Notes under the pieces: generated by a model | Databases searched by the model: none | What the model saw: only the letters and a program-made list of their open reading frames with translations | Told to the model about the DNA's origin: nothing | Source: a virus | Lineage: Duplodnaviria; Heunggongvirae; Uroviricota; Caudoviricetes | Strand: one strand, 5' to 3' | DNA length: 47,465 nt | IMG/VR virus record: IMGVR_UViG_3300034196_000151 | Made by a program: the position numbers and the translations under genes | Shown here: positions 2,443-37,316 of the stretch, in pieces | How the letters are laid out: each line of letters starts with the position of its first letter | Position numbering within the stretch: position 1 is the first letter of the stretch

Positions 2443-2551
2443 GGTGTATCTCCGAGAAGGTTGGTTGCTTCGTTTTGATGTGTCTATCATATCAAAAAGC
2501 AGATTATTCGACAAGCTTTATTTTCATCATTTTGAATAAAACCCAAATAAA

Positions 2552-2683: not shown

Positions 2684-2910
2684 ATAAAAAAAGGCACCCT
2701 CATGGATGCCTTTCTTCTGATAGAAGTTACTCTGCGTCTTGATGACGATTACGACGCTTGTCACGCCATTGGCGGTCTTTTTTGTTGTGCTGAGCTTTCT
2801 CGCTGTCATGTTTCTTTGCACCGCTGAAACGTTCAACTGCGTCACCGAAAGAACCTTGCATGTTGTAACTCCTAACCTTGGGTTTGTGTTGTTTCGTTTT
2901 GATGTGTCTA
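2684..2910 (-). repeat. ~225-bp repeat unit 1 (promoter, leader, 44-aa ORF, terminator)
   Basis: Near-identical to 3583-3811 and 4170-4390 by direct comparison. Confidence 0.9.
2727..2861 (-). CDS. Basic microprotein copy 1 (44 aa, MQGSFGDAVERFSGAKKHDSEKAQHNKKDRQWRDKRRNRHQDAE)
   Basis: SD AGGAG; promoter TTTACT-17-TAGAAT; terminator; frame conserved across four copies. Confidence 0.85.
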   Translation of the reverse strand: MQGSFGDAVERFSGAKKHDSEKAQHNKKDRQWRDKRRNRHQDAE

Positions 2911-3017
2911 TTCTAACAAAAATGAGTTTTTTAGTAAAGCTTTATTTTGAAAATAATAAAAAAACCAAATAAAAAAGCCCCAGAAAAATGAGGGGCTATT
3001 CAATGTTTTGAAAGTTT

Positions 3018-3215
3018 TTATCGAGGATTTTTTATAATATTAATTGCATACTCCCAATCATAATCAATGCTCTGATCTTGATCTTGCAGCAAACCCCACT
3101 CTACAAGACTTTTTGAATCAGTCATGGCATCAGCCAAAGTATCTTCATCAGAAGATGAGCGACCAACATTATCCAACCAAGATTCAAGATATTCTTTTAA
3201 GACTTTTTTATTCAT
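3018..3215 (-). CDS. Hypothetical acidic protein (65 aa)
   Basis: ORF with SD and downstream hairpin. Confidence 0.55.
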   Translation of the reverse strand: MNKKVLKEYLESWLDNVGRSSSDEDTLADAMTDSKSLVEWGLLQDQDQSIDYDWEYAINIIKNPR

Positions 3216-3259
3216 AATTAATACCCTATGTATATTAATGTAGTGCAGAAATTACTAGG

Positions 3260-3502
3260 CTAGATCAAAACTCGGCAGTCGCCGCCCTGCAAGTGAATGG
3301 AATAAATCTCATCAGAGAGTGCTTCGATAGCCTCTTCATTACCTGCCACACCACAAGCAACGACTTTTTCGAACATTTCGTGATCTGCAGGAAAATCAGT
3401 TGCGTAGACAGATACCAGTCCAATGCGAACACCGCCATGTTCCAGCATGGCAATGAAATAGTCAGCACCTTTAAAAATGAAGTTGGTAATGTTTGCGGTC
3501 AT
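3260..3502 (-). CDS. Hypothetical protein (80 aa)
   Basis: ORF with TATAAT promoter upstream. Confidence 0.6.
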   Translation of the reverse strand: MTANITNFIFKGADYFIAMLEHGGVRIGLVSVYATDFPADHEMFEKVVACGVAGNEEAIEALSDEIYSIHLQGGDCRVLI

Positions 3503-3582
3503 GTCTATGCCCTGTGAGGTTTGTTGAAGTAATTATAACAAAAACAAGTTTTTTGGTCAATAAAAAGTGTAGGTTTAATAAA

Positions 3583-3811
3583 ATAAAAAAAGGCACCCTA
3601 ACGGATGCCTTTCTTGTAGAAGATGTTATTCTGCGTCTTGATGACGATTACGACGCTTGTCACGCCATTGACGGTCTTTTTTATTGTGCTGAGCTTTCTC
3701 GCTGTCACGTTTCTTGTTGCCCGAAAAACGTTCTTGTGCGTCACCGAAAGAACCTTGCATGTTGTATCTCCTAGCCTTTGGGGTTTGTGTTGTTTCGTTT
3801 TGATGTGTCTA
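3583..3811 (-). repeat. ~225-bp repeat unit 2
   Basis: Near-identical to 2684-2910. Confidence 0.9.
3626..3760 (-). CDS. Basic microprotein copy 2 (44 aa, MQGSFGDAQERFSGNKKRDSEKAQHNKKDRQWRDKRRNRHQDAE)
   Basis: SD AGGAG; own promoter and terminator; same length and frame as copy 1. Confidence 0.85.
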   Translation of the reverse strand: MQGSFGDAQERFSGNKKRDSEKAQHNKKDRQWRDKRRNRHQDAE

Positions 3812-3866
3812 TAATACCAAAAATCATATTTCTAGACAAGCATTATTTTCTTAAACTTTAAAAATA

Positions 3867-4145
3867 TTACTCAAGGTCAAAATAGAAAACAATACGAGTT
3901 TTGCCATCAGCACATTGAAACGTGTGCTTGTATTCTGGGGTTGTGCAAGCTTTCCCACAGTGTAATCGTTTATCTGTTTGAACTTTATCAATCAACCTGC
4001 ATTGGTTGTCTTTATCTTTGACAAATGAAACCTCTTCGGGCCTTGTCAAGACAGCCATTAAGATACCACCACCGAAAACAGCAAAAACTATCAGAGAGGA
4101 TGTGGTTGCTAAACTCAATTCACTTTCAATTTTGTTATTAAACAT
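3867..4145 (-). CDS. Membrane-anchored protein with four Cys (92 aa)
   Basis: N-terminal hydrophobic helix followed by a Cys-containing soluble part. Confidence 0.6.
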   Translation of the reverse strand: MFNNKIESELSLATTSSLIVFAVFGGGILMAVLTRPEEVSFVKDKDNQCRLIDKVQTDKRLHCGKACTTPEYKHTFQCADGKTRIVFYFDLE

Positions 4146-4169
4146 AAGTAAATTTCACAATAAGGATGG

Positions 4170-4390
4170 ATAAAAAAAGGCACCCTAACGGATGCCTTTC
4201 TTCTGGTAGAAGTTTATTCTGCGTCTTGATGACGGTTGCGACGCTTATCACGCCATTGACGGTCTTTTTTATTGTGCTGAGCTTTCTCGCTGTCGTGTTT
4301 CTTAGCACCACTGAAACGTTCAACTGTGTCACCGAAAGAACCTTGCATTTTGTAACTCCTAACCTTGGGTTTGTGTTGTTTCGTTTTGAT
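4170..4390 (-). repeat. ~220-bp repeat unit 3
   Basis: Near-identical to units 1 and 2. Confidence 0.9.
4214..4348 (-). CDS. Basic microprotein copy 3 (44 aa, MQGSFGDTVERFSGAKKHDSEKAQHNKKDRQWRDKRRNRHQDAE)
   Basis: SD AGGAG; promoter TTGTTT-17-TATACT; terminator. Confidence 0.85.
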   Translation of the reverse strand: MQGSFGDTVERFSGAKKHDSEKAQHNKKDRQWRDKRRNRHQDAE

Positions 4391-4438
4391 GGGATAAGTA
4401 TACCAACATCACCAAACAAAAACAACATTTTTCTCAAT

Positions 4439-9262: not shown

Positions 9263-10291
9263 CTAGAAAACAAACTTCTTGTAATTTTCGGATTTTGCAA
9301 GGTAGTTTTCGATAATGGTATCAATCGGCAACGGCTTTTTGCGATTGTGCAGATTATCGTGGGAATGACGTTTCAACATCATGTCTTTGGCTTGCGTCAA
9401 GATCTCACGAATGTTTTCAACACTTTCGGTATAATTCGACCATTCCAGTTTCGATTTTATTTTGTTGACTTCATGAGCCACAATCAACAGATTGGATACA
9501 TTATAACCTTCAAAACGGTTAATACGGTCAATCGAGAAACCAAACGGGTTGTCTTCCTGTGTTTTAGTGGCCTTAACTAACGGCAAACCCGTCAATTGAC
9601 AGTGAGTGACGTTAAACAGGTGCTTAGAGTTCTCAAACGTGAGATCGCTTGTAAAACCCTTGCTTTTGGAACGCTCTTTGCACATTTCAATTTTGCGAAG
9701 AATGGCCCGGTCGGAATAGAACGATGCTTTACGAACAAAATCCGAAGGCTTAAAGACAGGCAGCGGTGTGCGTGGTGCAGCAGTCTCGATCAAACGTTGG
9801 CTGATATGCACAATGCGTTCAGGCGTCACCAAACTACGTTCTATGAGCACATCATGATTAACCGGGTCTGGTGTCAGGCTCTTTGGTTTAATCGTAGGCC
9901 GCATGGTGTCATGAATTAAGGTAAGCTGAGCCTTAATGTCATTGATATCAATAAAGTCTGGTGTGGCCTTCATCATTTTGTGAAGTTCAAACCAAAAGTT
10001 AACGGCTTGCTGGTGAACAATCAACACCTGATTAACCGATACGACATCGGCAGTGTAGGGATTAATCGGAATCAGGTACACATTACCCATGTCATTGAAT
10101 TTTGCACCTGTGACTTCACAGTAGAAGCTGCCATCGAGTTCAGTCGCTTTCAGGCGTGCTAGCACTTCTTTTTCAAGAAGATCAAAGGTCAATGTCGGGT
10201 AATACCGTTTCACACGTCCGATCATTGAACGCATGTTGGAATTCAATTTTTCCAAACCTTTTTTAGCCAAGTTTTGAGGAATGAGGCTCAT
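9263..10291 (-). CDS. His-Me finger (HNH-like) domain protein, T4 Srd-like C-terminal domain
   Basis: CQLTG...SIDRINRFEGYNVSNLLIVAHEVNKIK matches the C-x-x-TG / SIDRID-GY-N-N pattern of His-Me finger proteins. Confidence 0.65.
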   Translation of the reverse strand: MSLIPQNLAKKGLEKLNSNMRSMIGRVKRYYPTLTFDLLEKEVLARLKATELDGSFYCEVTGAKFNDMGNVYLIPINPYTADVVSVNQVLIVHQQAVNFWFELHKMMKATPDFIDINDIKAQLTLIHDTMRPTIKPKSLTPDPVNHDVLIERSLVTPERIVHISQRLIETAAPRTPLPVFKPSDFVRKASFYSDRAILRKIEMCKERSKSKGFTSDLTFENSKHLFNVTHCQLTGLPLVKATKTQEDNPFGFSIDRINRFEGYNVSNLLIVAHEVNKIKSKLEWSNYTESVENIREILTQAKDMMLKRHSHDNLHNRKKPLPIDTIIENYLAKSENYKKFVF

Positions 10292-33321: not shown

Positions 33322-33410
33322 TAATTGTGGCCTTAATGGGTTTTGATAAGGCTATTTTATCAAAAATTGAGAACTTTTACAAGGTTTTTAATGAATATGG
33401 ATTTTAAATG

Positions 33411-33438
33411 AAAAAAAAGCCCACCGAAGTGAGCTTTT
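33411..33438 (-). terminator. Terminator of the tRNA/ncRNA operon (C(UUCG)G loop)
   Basis: AAAAGCTCAC-TTCG-GTGGGCTTTT followed by a T-run. Confidence 0.85.
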
Positions 33439-33439
33439 C

Positions 33440-33645
33440 ATGAATGAGAATGACAAGGCGACGGATGAACATTGTCGATTAAAACCTTGCCCGCTTTCGC
33501 TAAACGGTGATATTCTGGCTTTTAAATTTCGCCATACCATTCTTACACTAGCAATCCCCGTTCTAAAATATCGCTAGCCGCAGATCCATTCTTTAGAGCA
33601 TTGAACCCGTCAGATCTGCTATCCAACTCACCGGCATTCAACTCA
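33440..33645 (-). ncRNA. Candidate structured ncRNA of unknown class (~200 nt)
   Basis: No ORF of 60 aa or more; helices CGGUGA/UCACCG, GCAGAUC/GAUCUGC, CUAGCGAU/AUUGCUAG, GGCAAGG/CCUUGUC, CGAC/GUCG; T-loop-like G-UUCAAUG-C; lies between tRNAs and the terminator. Confidence 0.55.
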
Positions 33646-33672
33646 GCTCAAGTTTAATTAATCATCATATAT

Positions 33673-33713
33673 AATTAGTAGTTAGTTCTGCATCGGTAGC
33701 TCACCTCTGGCAC
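33673..33713 (-). repeat. 41-bp repeat copy A, containing SD plus minigene ATG CAG AAC TAA
   Basis: GTGCCAGAGGTGAGC-12 variable nt-ACTAACTACTAATT. Confidence 0.85.
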
Positions 33714-33774
33714 TTCGTTTAATATGAACTAAGGGTTAGTCGGCATTCATTATACTAGATTCAATTATAGATTA

Positions 33775-33815
33775 AATTAGTAGTTAGTGCGGCATTATTG
33801 GCTCACCTCTGGCAC
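33775..33815 (-). repeat. 41-bp repeat copy B, containing SD plus minigene ATG CCG CAC TAA
   Basis: Identical 15-nt and 14-nt flanks to copy A; different 12-nt core. Confidence 0.85.
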
Positions 33816-33854
33816 ACTGATTAGTTATCAAGTGGTTAATGTTTTAATTCAATT

Positions 33855-33939
33855 TGGTGCCCGGTGCCAGACTCGAACTGGCATGACTTTCGCCGGAAGA
33901 TTTTAAGTCTTCTGTGTCTACCGATTTCACCAACCGGGC
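33855..33939 (-). tRNA. tRNA-Leu (UAA)
   Basis: GCCCGGT/ACCGGGC acceptor; anticodon loop CT-TAA-AA; long variable arm; GTTCGA; encoded CCA. Confidence 0.95.
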
Positions 33940-33945
33940 ATAATT

Positions 33946-34022
33946 TGGTCCGTGCGGCAGGACTTGAACCTGCGACCATCCGCTTAGAAGGCGGATGCTC
34001 TATCCAACTGAGCTACGCACGG
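33946..34022 (-). tRNA. tRNA-Arg (UCU)
   Basis: CCGTGCG/CGCACGG acceptor; AGCTCAGTTGGATAGAGC D arm; loop CT-TCT-AA; GGTTCAA; CCA. Confidence 0.95.
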
Positions 34023-34031
34023 GTGTTTGTT

Positions 34032-34163
34032 TTATTCAGCGTCTTGATGACGTTGACGACGATTATCACGCATTTGACGGCTGGCTTTGTTATCGCCACG
34101 TTTGGAGTTGTCTTTCTGCTTGCCTGCAAACTTTTCCATCATGTCGCGGTGAGAACCTTGCAT
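34032..34163 (-). CDS. Basic microprotein copy 4, diverged (43 aa, MQGSHRDMMEKFAGKQKDNSKRGDNKASRQMRDNRRQRHQDAE)
   Basis: Conserved MQGS start, RQxRDxRRxRHQDAE end and same leader; SD AAGGA; ends 9 nt before tRNA-Arg. Confidence 0.85.
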   Translation of the reverse strand: MQGSHRDMMEKFAGKQKDNSKRGDNKASRQMRDNRRQRHQDAE

Positions 34164-34200
34164 TTTGTATTTCCTTGTGTTGTTTCGTTTCGATGGGTTC

Positions 34201-34229
34201 ATTATATGGAAAAGAGGGTTGGGTGTAAA
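34201..34229 (-). promoter_or_regulatory. Sigma70 promoter of the microprotein-tRNA-ncRNA operon
   Basis: TTTACA-17-TATAAT. Confidence 0.8.
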
Positions 34230-34340
34230 GCATTATTTTCGTTTTTTTATCAAAAAAATCACAATTTTAAGACTTCATCTTGTTGATTTTTAAGAGGAAA
34301 CAAAAAAGGGGAACTCGGCCCCTTTCTTTACATGTATAGC

Positions 34341-35655: not shown

Positions 35656-36264
35656 TTAGATTTTTTGAGTAGTATCTACATATTTCAAATAAGCGTCCAC
35701 TTTCTTTTGAACTGTGGCAATCGACTGGGTGACATCTTTGTGGTGTTCATCCCGTTGCAAGCAATGTTTAGGGAAGGTCATGGTAACGTTCAAGCCAATA
35801 GCTTCACCAGCAATACCACCAGCCCAGTCAGCTCCTGTTTGACCACCAGAGATAAGGTTTGTCAGCGGCCAAAACTCATGAACCTTAGCGATAACCATGT
35901 AAACCCACTGGTTCAAGGAAACTTGAAATTCATTAACAAACTTCGCTTCGTCCAACCGATCAAACTTTTGAGGCTCCGACAATTGTCCCGGTGCCCAAGC
36001 ACCAGAGAGAGAATAGATTCCATTACCGGCGACGTTCAAGGTCACAACATTGTGTTTTTTGCAGGCGGCATACAACATACGAGCCGCAACAAGAGGGTCT
36101 GTGCTCAAATGGATGGCGACATAACGATTACCGGCTTCACGTTTAGTAAGGCGTTCACCTGCAGAGGTAAAGTCTTCTGCGAAAGCGACAGTAAGATCTG
36201 CTGTGTGAGCATTGTGTACAGTTCTTGGCTTATACTGTGCTGACTCATGTTCGATAATTTTCAT
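35656..36264 (-). CDS. Circularly permuted putative molybdenum-carrier (SLOG) family protein
   Basis: RTVHNA..ADLTV, AGERLT and LNVAG motifs precede ISGGQTGAD, which is normally N-terminal. Confidence 0.7.
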   Translation of the reverse strand: MKIIEHESAQYKPRTVHNAHTADLTVAFAEDFTSAGERLTKREAGNRYVAIHLSTDPLVAARMLYAACKKHNVVTLNVAGNGIYSLSGAWAPGQLSEPQKFDRLDEAKFVNEFQVSLNQWVYMVIAKVHEFWPLTNLISGGQTGADWAGGIAGEAIGLNVTMTFPKHCLQRDEHHKDVTQSIATVQKKVDAYLKYVDTTQKI

Positions 36265-36331
36265 AAAGACACCCCTTTTTGAATAAAGATATTATACCAC
36301 AAAGGGTTTCAAATGGGAAATAAAAGGCATG

Positions 36332-36354
36332 AAAAAACCACCCGAAGGTGGTTT
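36332..36354 (-). terminator. Terminator of the tRNA-Leu/tmRNA-like operon
   Basis: AAACCACC-TTCG-GGTGGTTT followed by a T-run. Confidence 0.85.
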
Positions 36355-36361
36355 CTGTGTT

Positions 36362-36528
36362 TGGTAGCTGTTGATGGGGTCGAACCACCAAGTTAGGACT
36401 ATTTCATAAGCCTCAGAGTACGTGCGGCCTCGTCTGACTTACTATTTCATCTTCACTCTGCCTCCACATCCACGGTTTTTGATGTTTGCACGTATAACAC
36501 CGCCAACCGATCCAGTTTAGCAACAGCC
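36362..36528 (-). ncRNA. 167-nt tRNA-mimic RNA, candidate miniature tmRNA-like RNA
   Basis: Acceptor GGCUGUU/AACAGCU-A-CCA; T arm GGUGG-UUCGACC-CCAUC; 13-nt stemless D-loop with CUGGAU; P2-like GGUUGG/CUAACU; UAUACGU-GCA-AAC resume-like motif; 15-codon frame ending UAG UAA. Confidence 0.7.
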
Positions 36529-36542
36529 AGAAATCTTAAATT

Positions 36543-36627
36543 TGGTGCCCAAGGTCGGACTCGAACCGACACTCCTTTCGGAAGCGGATTTTGAATCCGC
36601 CGCGTCTACCAATTTCACCACATGGGC
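36543..36627 (-). tRNA. tRNA-Leu (CAA)
   Basis: GCCCATG/CTTGGGC acceptor; loop TT-CAA-AA; long variable arm; GGTTCGA; CCA. Confidence 0.95.
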
Positions 36628-36657
36628 GTGGTTGTTTCTCTACTCTTTATGCATTGC

Positions 36658-36686
36658 AGTATATCAAGGTTTAGACAAAACTGCAA
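36658..36686 (-). promoter_or_regulatory. Sigma70 promoter of the tRNA-Leu(CAA)/tmRNA-like operon
   Basis: TTGCAG-17-TATACT. Confidence 0.75.
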
Positions 36687-36713
36687 CACTTTTTTCGATA
36701 TTTTCAATAAAAT

Positions 36714-36908
36714 TCATTCCATCAAATCTTTCGCAGCCGACTTATATCCACGATTCCATGCATATTGCAGCATAGCATCCAAAGATTTCAACTGTTCATC
36801 AGTCCAACCTTCGGTAGATGGCAAAGACATAGAACCACCTGCCAGACGTTTGTTTCCTGCAGCGTCTTTCATAATTTCTTTGATGTCATCATGAATATAA
36901 CCAGCCAT
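36714..36908 (-). CDS. Small hypothetical protein (64 aa)
   Basis: SD GAGGTG before MAGYI. Confidence 0.55.
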   Translation of the reverse strand: MAGYIHDDIKEIMKDAAGNKRLAGGSMSLPSTEGWTDEQLKSLDAMLQYAWNRGYKSAAKDLME

Positions 36909-36977
36909 ACGCACCTCAATATTAAAAGTATAGAGATTATCTCAACAGCCGTATTATATCAAAGAAATGGGGCTAAA

Positions 36978-37316
36978 TCAAACCCTATCTGGATAGTTTT
37001 CAAATGAAAAACCTTTATCAATAATATGACGCATAAGATCAAGGGGATGACAAGATTTTGTAACTTCAATCAAATAAGCACTGATTGCAAGGTCAAACTG
37101 TTCAAACGCGAGTCTGTCTTTGTCAGGGCACTCATGCCATTGTGTGCCAAAAACAGAAATAATTTCAATCGGCCCATCAGAATCAATAGTTGCATTCCTG
37201 ATGCTAATTCTTTTGATAATATTGGTGTCAACGACTGTAGCCGTGATGATGTAAACAGAATCATTGTTAACATAAGACCCAATGTCAACAAAATATTTTT
37301 CTACCGTAGGCGTCAT
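36978..37316 (-). CDS. Hypothetical protein (112 aa)
   Basis: SD GAGGT; promoter. Confidence 0.6.
   Translation of the reverse strand: MTPTVEKYFVDIGSYVNNDSVYIITATVVDTNIIKRISIRNATIDSDGPIEIISVFGTQWHECPDKDRLAFEQFDLAISAYLIEVTKSCHPLDLMRHIIDKGFSFENYPDRV

Follow-up and report, generated by a model that had tools for sequence, protein, structure and literature searches.

The 47,465-nucleotide (nt) viral sequence IMGVR_UViG_3300034196_000151 (Caudoviricetes), hereafter the window, carries on its minus strand a gene for a small basic protein, two tRNA genes, two short repeats, and a non-coding tail in close succession, which raises the question of whether these parts form one transcription unit and what such a unit would do. 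A first-pass annotation, made from the letters and translated open reading frames (ORFs), had proposed a candidate translation-control module driven by one promoter, and each sequence feature that it listed was found at its position. The locus is probably a composite early transcription unit, processed into separate products and built from four modules that were shuffled independently: (1) a strong T4-style promoter with a CA-rich leader and a 43-amino acid (aa), basic, largely helical microprotein, (2) tRNA-Arg(UCU) and tRNA-Leu(UAA), (3) a pair of minigenes trailing the tRNA, each with a putatively accessible Shine-Dalgarno (SD) sequence GAGGUGA, 7 nt, AUG, two codons, and UAA, and (4) an optional RNA tail of approximately 230 nt that would end in the sole terminator.

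The unit extends over approximately 785 nt in the order promoter, leader, microprotein, tRNA-Arg(UCU), tRNA-Leu(UAA), two 41-bp repeats, tail, and terminator, and all of its coordinates refer to the minus strand. The intrinsic terminator of an upstream gene for a 195-aa protein (34302..34328) forms the 5' boundary and insulates the unit. The predicted early promoter (34201..34240) comprises an upstream element (GAAAATAATGC), a −35 hexamer TTTACA (34229-34224), a 17-nt spacer, and a −10 hexamer TATAAT (34206-34201); it matches 11 of 12 consensus positions and is the top site within the 1.3 kb scanned, in agreement with the single promoter originally proposed. Orthologous units retain both hexamers and the upstream GAAAATAATGC but vary in the 17-nt spacer, as would be expected for the footprint of a working promoter. 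The GCTTTACA −35 region is similar to that of T4 early promoters. The CA-rich leader (34164..34195) contains the motif CATCGAAACGAAAC and the SD sequence AAGGAA (34176-34171), and is common to three other microprotein cassettes and one other gene. At 2467-2480 (minus strand), the leader motif (CATCAAAACGAAGC) also lies ahead of an unrelated gene starting at 2441 (ATGACTCAAGTT...). An intrinsic terminator with a UUCG loop and a U8 tail (33406..33439; placed at 33439-33414 by the consensus scan) is the sole terminator of the unit, and the consensus scan between 34201 and 33439 agrees with the earlier annotation in that no internal terminator-like site, nor any sigma-70-like promoter site, was found. 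Because the gaps within the unit are as short as 9 and 6 nt and internal signals are lacking, co-transcription from one promoter is supported as the only simple reading of the sequence.

The microprotein coding sequence (CDS; 34032..34163) is preceded by the SD AAGGAA and encodes 43 aa. It is the fourth copy in the window and, as had been noted at first pass, its stop codon (TAA, 34034-34032) ends 9 nt ahead of tRNA-Arg(UCU). The three other paralogs are monocistronic cassettes (2727..4391, minus strand; CDS starts 2861, 3760, and 4348), each of which has a separate promoter and terminator but an identical type of leader. Across a family alignment of 23 distinct sequences from the window and its relatives, the residues M1, Q2, G3, S4, D7, E10, F12, K15, D18, R32, R35, R36, R38, and H39 are invariant. 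Thus, the MQGS start singled out in the first-pass annotation is invariant throughout the family, whereas only the RH of its second motif, RHQDAE, is. The pairwise ratio of non-synonymous to synonymous divergence (dN/dS) ranges from 0.02 to 0.40, and two window copies differ by 9 synonymous changes versus 1 non-synonymous change. Because of this dN/dS range, the microprotein is evidently a real protein gene, and the protein-level selection claimed earlier is borne out.

A profile search of 1.84 billion representative proteins recovered 31 clusters, all of 40-46 aa except for three longer records in which the extra residues are all N-terminal; none of the 31 clusters contains a fusion of the microprotein to another domain, and searches of Pfam and the ESM Atlas returned no match. 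Given the family alignment, AlphaFold2 predicts two helices (residues 5-11 and 19-42), the longer of which is basic, with a mean predicted local distance difference test (pLDDT) score of 75. The arginine-rich motif R32..R35 R36..R38 H39 is invariant and falls inside the predicted helix 19-42. The microprotein most likely binds RNA or ribosomes. It resembles arginine-rich motif (ARM) peptides (lambda N, HK022 Nun, and the human immunodeficiency virus proteins Rev and Tat) in being short and basic with a predicted Arg-rich helix, although no homology to them was found and the invariant acidic/aromatic N-terminal half (MQGS..D..E.F) has no ARM counterpart. We infer the link between the microprotein and translation from its position only, and its tie to the tRNA genes may reflect coupled expression and not a common mechanism.

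ARAGORN and Rfam (RF00005) agree on both tRNA genes, as the first-pass annotation had called them: tRNA-Arg(UCU) at 33946..34022 (73.2 bits) and, 6 nt past it, tRNA-Leu(UAA) at 33855..33939 (55.8 bits), each with an encoded CCA. Since TTG and TTA make up 42% of the Leu codons and AGA 14% of the Arg codons in the window ORFs, the operon tRNAs appear to fit the codon demand of these ORFs. The gap between the microprotein stop and the tRNA 5' end (34023..34031, 9 nt) has an equal length in five other operons of relatives. A tRNA gene lies directly downstream in 10 of 24 distinct family genes, at a gap of 9 nt in six; the four other gaps measure 8, 7, 32, and 89 nt. Eight of the tRNA-linked genes group, in a maximum-likelihood tree, into an exclusive clade (ultrafast bootstrap 96; Shimodaira-Hasegawa-like approximate likelihood ratio test 89), which is drawn from five contigs (the window and four others), is one residue shorter, and carries the signature MQGS[HY]RDM.EKF. 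Synonymous divergence inside this clade ranges from 0.3 to about 2. Because eight of the ten linked genes fall into one supported clade from five contigs, the linkage between microprotein and tRNA is, judging from the tree, old, retained, and conserved; the earlier annotation had suggested looking for such linkage in relatives, and its absence was not what was found. Since the remaining two tRNA-linked genes fall outside the main clade, the linkage likely arose more than once.

The same tRNA types also recur elsewhere in the related elements. In G001 (L018 8681-11604; L099), eight tRNA genes lie within 3 kb, including repeated tRNA-Leu(UAA), tRNA-Arg(UCU), and tRNA-Met genes, and identical isoacceptor modules have been amplified many times. 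The tRNA-Arg(UCU) at 33946-34022 is 95-97% identical to Acinetobacter phage tRNA-Arg genes and, jointly with the tRNA-Leu, to the corresponding genes of the Pseudomonas jumbo phage PA5oct, which gives a weak hint of a gammaproteobacterial host.

Behind tRNA-Leu(UAA) are the two 41-bp repeats of the first-pass annotation, which were recovered at 33815-33775 and 33713-33673; they share 85% identity and lie 102 nt apart. Each reads as a minigene. Unit 1 (33775..33815) has the sequence GUGCCA-GAGGUGA (GAGGUGA at 33809-33803), 7 nt, and AUG CCG CAC UAA (33795-33784; MPH-stop), and unit 2 (33673..33713) has GAGGUGA (33707-33701), 7 nt, and AUG CAG AAC UAA (33693-33682; MQN-stop). A first pattern scan, with the 15-nt GTGCCAGAGGTGAGC, was too unspecific, as most of its 77 matches lay in unrelated contigs. 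Units were defined by the upstream motif GYGC-N1-4-GAGGTGA alone, with no ORF criterion, which yielded 32 distinct units. An ATG occurs exactly 7 nt past GAGGTGA in 32/32 units, and an in-frame stop follows after 0-2 sense codons in 31 of them and after 4 in one; the other two frames typically reach their first stop at 4-8 codons. The stop codon is UAA in 29 of the 32 units. The second codon is CAG (22 units), CCG (6), AAG (2), GAG (1), or the stop itself (1), while the last sense codon varies (His, Asn, Gln, Pro, Phe, Ile, Leu, Ser, Tyr, Lys, Arg, or none). By these counts, it is the start-and-stop design of the minigenes that is under selection and not any given peptide.

A conserved hairpin in the minigene unit was considered and rejected, as alifold of the ~130-nt unit alignment gave an energy of 0 and no consensus structure. 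Because the units lack a consensus structure and lie in AU-rich RNA, the minigene SD should be accessible. Decoding of the minigenes by the operon's own tRNAs was also rejected, since a Leu or Arg codon occurs in only 3 of 32 units and none of these is UUA, UUG, or AGA. In relatives, units occur as pairs right behind tRNA-Leu(UAA), behind a tRNA-like gene, and as stand-alone arrays of three to five units that run from promoter to terminator, and a CA-rich leader related to that of the microprotein also heads the arrays. Two tRNA-like genes with 6-nt anticodon loops were observed (L007 538-614, minus strand; L108 4200-4279, plus strand), which ARAGORN reports as ‘tRNA-?(ga)’ and ‘tRNA-?(tc)’; the one in L108 is preceded by a promoter of its own and followed by a minigene pair and a homolog of the window tail.

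The tail (33440..33672) is a non-coding stretch of approximately 230 nt with one clear homolog, in L108, where the counterpart also lies behind a minigene pair and is 71% identical over about 330 nt. Helices common to both include CCGUUUAGCGAAAGCGG and GCAAGG...CCUUGU, and the comparison of these two full-length sequences, the only ones available, gives six compensatory pairs. Behind a five-unit array in G001, the 3' hairpin GCAAGG...CCUUGU occurs again, with an inner stem that covaries; this hairpin is also shared with L011. Rfam searches of both operons of the window that contain RNA genes (gathering threshold and E<=10) returned tRNAs only and nothing for the tail; weak matches to istR, isrB, and rsmX were discarded as terminator look-alikes. 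A blastn search for tail homologs in seven related records found terminators only, a pattern scan of viral contigs hit coding DNA four times by chance, and a second scan gave zero matches. The tail was rejected as a protein gene because neither its 50-aa nor its 32-aa ORF is conserved in L108 and one of the two crosses the terminator, and as a tRNA-like RNA because it has no tRNA/tmRNA call, no Rfam tRNA-clan match, and folds without an acceptor-type closure. L096 and L098 lack the tail at the orthologous position, where the second minigene is directly followed by the terminator. The tail is, on this comparison, a conserved but optional module. A second, unrelated type of tail, GGTGYGG-TTTTTTTAAGTGRCAATTTAACG-YCCTCCACC followed by a terminator, lies behind stand-alone minigene arrays and is conserved in four contigs (L008 1690-1830; L065 ~3540-3420, minus strand; L094 ~1110-1230; L077 ~1160-1270).

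The modules of the unit also occur apart from one another. In relatives, tRNA-Leu with minigenes, or a tRNA-like gene with minigenes and a tail, stand on their own promoters without the microprotein, and the relatives also hold monocistronic microprotein genes, stand-alone minigene arrays, and operons without a tail. If the window unit is transcribed as proposed, host RNase P and RNase E would cut the primary transcript into three products. RNase P cuts at tRNA 5' ends. RNase E is known to remove trailers during the processing of tRNA operons (PMC5291269). The first product would be a short microprotein mRNA with its end 9 nt past the stop codon, the second would be the two tRNAs as extra decoders for AGA and UUA/UUG, and the third would be a trailer RNA of approximately 440 nt. 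The minigenes on this trailer may be efficient at loading ribosomes, which would leave after one or two peptide bonds without a useful product, and such loading could protect or mark the trailer RNA, or tie up ribosomes.

Several observations weigh against this composite, processed unit. The transcript and its processing steps are predictions from the sequence, and so are ribosome loading on the minigenes and their translation. The promoter scan covered sigma-70-type consensus sites only, so that a phage-specific internal promoter would be outside its reach, and L096 has a promoter in front of tRNA-Leu. No tRNA lies directly downstream of 14 of the 24 family genes, which are monocistronic; most of these have a terminator-like T-run about 30-36 nt downstream. 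The tail has only one full homolog (L108), and its folding energy is no better than that of shuffled sequences (whole trailer z −0.33; tail z −0.40; a further z of −1.09). With one clear homolog and no thermodynamic signal, the term “structured” used in the first-pass annotation for this region of ~200 nt holds only in part: such a region is present and has a conserved counterpart in one relative, but neither its energy nor Rfam adds to this. The interpretation of that annotation likewise finds partial support. Co-transcription and conserved linkage hold, whereas for a single functional translation-control module the modules are separable, more than half of the microprotein genes stand alone, and L096 and L098 lack the tail; a joint role of the parts in translation control is therefore something that we infer.

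Other explanations of the locus concern either how its parts came together or what the minigenes do. With respect to the former, a portable, strong early promoter cassette may have been recombined in front of tRNA genes to drive them, in which case the microprotein would be unrelated to translation. This explanation is possible although on the unlikely side. The monocistronic microprotein genes have the same promoter and leader, a related CA-rich leader heads the minigene arrays, the same leader heads one unrelated gene, and the two linked genes outside the main clade indicate a repeated origin of the linkage. However, a mere promoter donor would not need purifying selection on its ORF, the tRNA-linked genes are an old, exclusive paralog clade with its own signature, and the gap stays at 9 nt whether an Arg or a Leu tRNA follows. 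It is very unlikely that the parts are transcribed independently, from unrecognized internal promoters (e.g., around CTAGTATAAT at 33757-33748) or from processing-independent starts, as the 9-nt and 6-nt gaps are too small for promoters between the microprotein, tRNA-Arg, and tRNA-Leu and no −35/−10 pair with legal spacing occurs inside the unit, despite the −10-like TATAAT boxes in the inter-minigene spacer, which are conserved in L096, and the true promoters before tRNA-Leu in L096 and the tRNA-like gene of L108.

As for the minigenes, bound ribosomes could simply shield the AU-rich trailer and tail from RNase E or Rho, with the tail or the tRNA as the functional product. The position of the units in AU-rich, unstructured RNA right behind tRNAs and ahead of a tail or terminator fits such protection, and tRNA trailers can give rise to functional RNAs, for example the sponge 3'ETS-leuZ (bioRxiv 10.1101/2021.04.25.441314). 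This is nevertheless rather unlikely, because many units immediately precede a terminator without any cargo RNA, and stand-alone arrays of 3-5 units are hard to account for as mere shields. Less probable still is that the minigenes sequester tRNAs in the manner of lambda bar or CreT, where peptidyl-tRNA drop-off would deplete host tRNAs such as the CAG and CCG decoders and so halt translation in the host, the phage itself favoring CAA and CCA/CCU. A strong SD with a 1-3-codon ORF is the most inhibitory minigene design (PMC2490762), CreT RNAs act in this way in nature (PMC8501985), and the second codons are minority synonyms in the window genes (CAG 31%, CCG 16%, AAG 27%, GAG 18%). On the other hand, codons ending in G are in the minority in any genome of 40% GC, and the dropped tRNA is set by the last sense codon, which is highly variable (>=11 amino acids or none); together with the lack of rare-codon pairs such as the tandem rare codons of CreT, these varied last codons argue against a single tRNA target. 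Moreover, bar toxicity requires a defect in peptidyl-tRNA hydrolase (Pth) (PMC2490762), and five relatives yielded neither a Pth gene nor an anti-Pth lead, so that a phage-encoded Pth was rejected as a candidate. It is highly improbable that the microprotein, tRNAs, and minigene trailer are one co-evolved device that takes over host ribosomes in a codon-selective shut-off, in which the trailer would capture ribosomes or drain the decoders of G-ending codons that the phage avoids, and the co-transcribed tRNAs and basic microprotein would re-tune the captured machinery toward phage messages.

Mixed tRNA-mRNA-non-coding RNA operons, to which the proposed composite unit would belong, are already known from the Escherichia coli tyrT operon and the phage T4 tRNA cluster. 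The tyrT operon (tyrT-tyrV, rtT RNA, tpr) similarly combines, on one transcript, tRNAs, a trailer with repeats from which a non-coding RNA arises, and a ‘protamine-like’ protein that is small and basic. Its trailer repeats are 178 bp long and, unlike those of the window, are not SD-AUG-stop units; furthermore, tpr lies inside the trailer repeats whereas the microprotein lies ahead of the tRNAs, and the analogy is one of layout only. Both rttR and tpr are parts of the tyrT transcript (PMC3141248 Table 2). In T4, the tRNA cluster also combines tRNAs, small ORFs, and extra RNAs, in this case the stable RNAs C and D (species 1 and 2), and a further likeness is that a neighboring operon of the window (36.3-36.6 kb) has an RNA with a tRNA-type acceptor end. 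The T4 cluster is expressed as early or middle transcripts, and the extra stable RNAs are freed by host RNase P and RNase E. In contrast to RNAs C and D, the window tail has no acceptor stem, T arm, or CCA end, and T4 is not known to carry minigene repeats or a microprotein of this family.

Individual modules have counterparts as well. Lambda bar and engineered 2-8-codon minigenes resemble the units in consisting of an SD, AUG, very few codons, and a stop, and the shortest minigene ORFs act most strongly, through peptidyl-tRNA drop-off (PMC2490762). The bar-type design of SD, AUG, 1-3 sense codons, and stop was found in all 32 units, while a fixed last codon was not. In addition, bar acts on one specific tRNA (last codon AUA) and is toxic only when Pth is limiting, whereas the codons vary here and the units are arranged in pairs or arrays inside tRNA trailers. 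CreT, of the CRISPR (clustered regularly interspaced short palindromic repeats)-associated CreTA system, is a natural small RNA with a short ORF behind an efficient start site, and its activity depends on translation of that ORF (PMC8501985), as is predicted for the minigenes here. Tandem rare codons (AGA AGA or AUA AUA) and a CreA antitoxin are features of CreT, whereas no AGA, AGG, or AUA pair occurs in any minigene unit. Nothing repeat-like except the minigene units was found at 33.0-37.5 kb, although no search was aimed at CRISPR repeats or cas genes. The trailer also resembles 3'ETS-leuZ of the glyW-cysT-leuZ operon, a sponge RNA cut from a tRNA operon trailer (bioRxiv 10.1101/2021.04.25.441314), in lying between the last tRNA, a tRNA-Leu, and the terminator and in ending with a hairpin and a U tail. 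However, 3'ETS-leuZ is about 50 nt long, binds Hfq, and pairs with small RNAs, in contrast to a trailer of about 440 nt with minigenes.

In the literature searched, no description was found of the microprotein family, of minigene pairs behind tRNAs, or of the tail. Three of the four modules therefore appear to be undescribed, namely a 40-46-aa basic family confined to giant phage-like DNA, the SD-AUG-stop minigene pairs that regularly follow phage tRNAs, and a conserved trailer RNA. If the minigenes truly load ribosomes, they would constitute an RNA device of natural origin, amplified again and again, that targets the translation machinery in the course of infection, and such a device would explain the many copies of the same tRNA modules in these elements.

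The window itself has a GC content of 40% and dense short ORFs, predominantly on the minus strand. Few of its proteins match a known family, and those that do are of phage type, with an HNH/Srd-like domain and several PHROGs of unknown function. Megablast and blastn searches against 50,697 phage records matched the window DNA through its tRNAs only, and neither a microprotein relative nor a relative of the window was found among the GTDB species genomes. The relatives that were found all come from very large IMG/VR contigs (152-437 kb) and from metagenome contigs (0.06-1.86 Mb). Because the relatives are confined to such very large contigs and none is in GTDB, the window was treated as part of an uncultured giant phage-like element. 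Very long metagenome contigs that contain relatives are Ga0308158_10000001 (1.86 Mb), Ga0247725_1000001 (1.54 Mb), and Ga0308157_10000028 (0.68 Mb). A 290-kb part within these long metagenome contigs is a provirus according to its IMG/VR label, and the microprotein copies in the 1.86-Mb contig are spread over about 275 kb. Among five relatives, three encode a ribosome recycling factor, and no such gene was found in the two most complete elements; the genes in L127, L128, and L129 (G002, G005, and G007) are full-length (PF01765, E 1e-50 or better).

The second RNA operon mentioned in the first-pass annotation does lie nearby, about 2 kb upstream (36330..36980, minus strand), and is syntenic in two relatives, L096 and L098, together with the intervening genes. 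It consists of a 66-aa ORF, tRNA-Leu(CAA) (36627-36543), a tRNA-ended RNA, and a terminator; the acceptor-type closure of the tRNA-ended RNA was judged by eye and from its predicted fold. Elsewhere in the window, 9263-10291 (minus strand) encodes a 342-aa protein with a C-terminal HNH-endonuclease / Srd anti-sigma-like domain (phrog_3118, phrog_4592, phrog_1400). Between the two RNA operons, a gene at 35656-36264 (minus strand) encodes a 202-aa circularly permuted YpsA SLOG family protein (PF12694, E 1e-8; phrog_10774), which is syntenic in L096.

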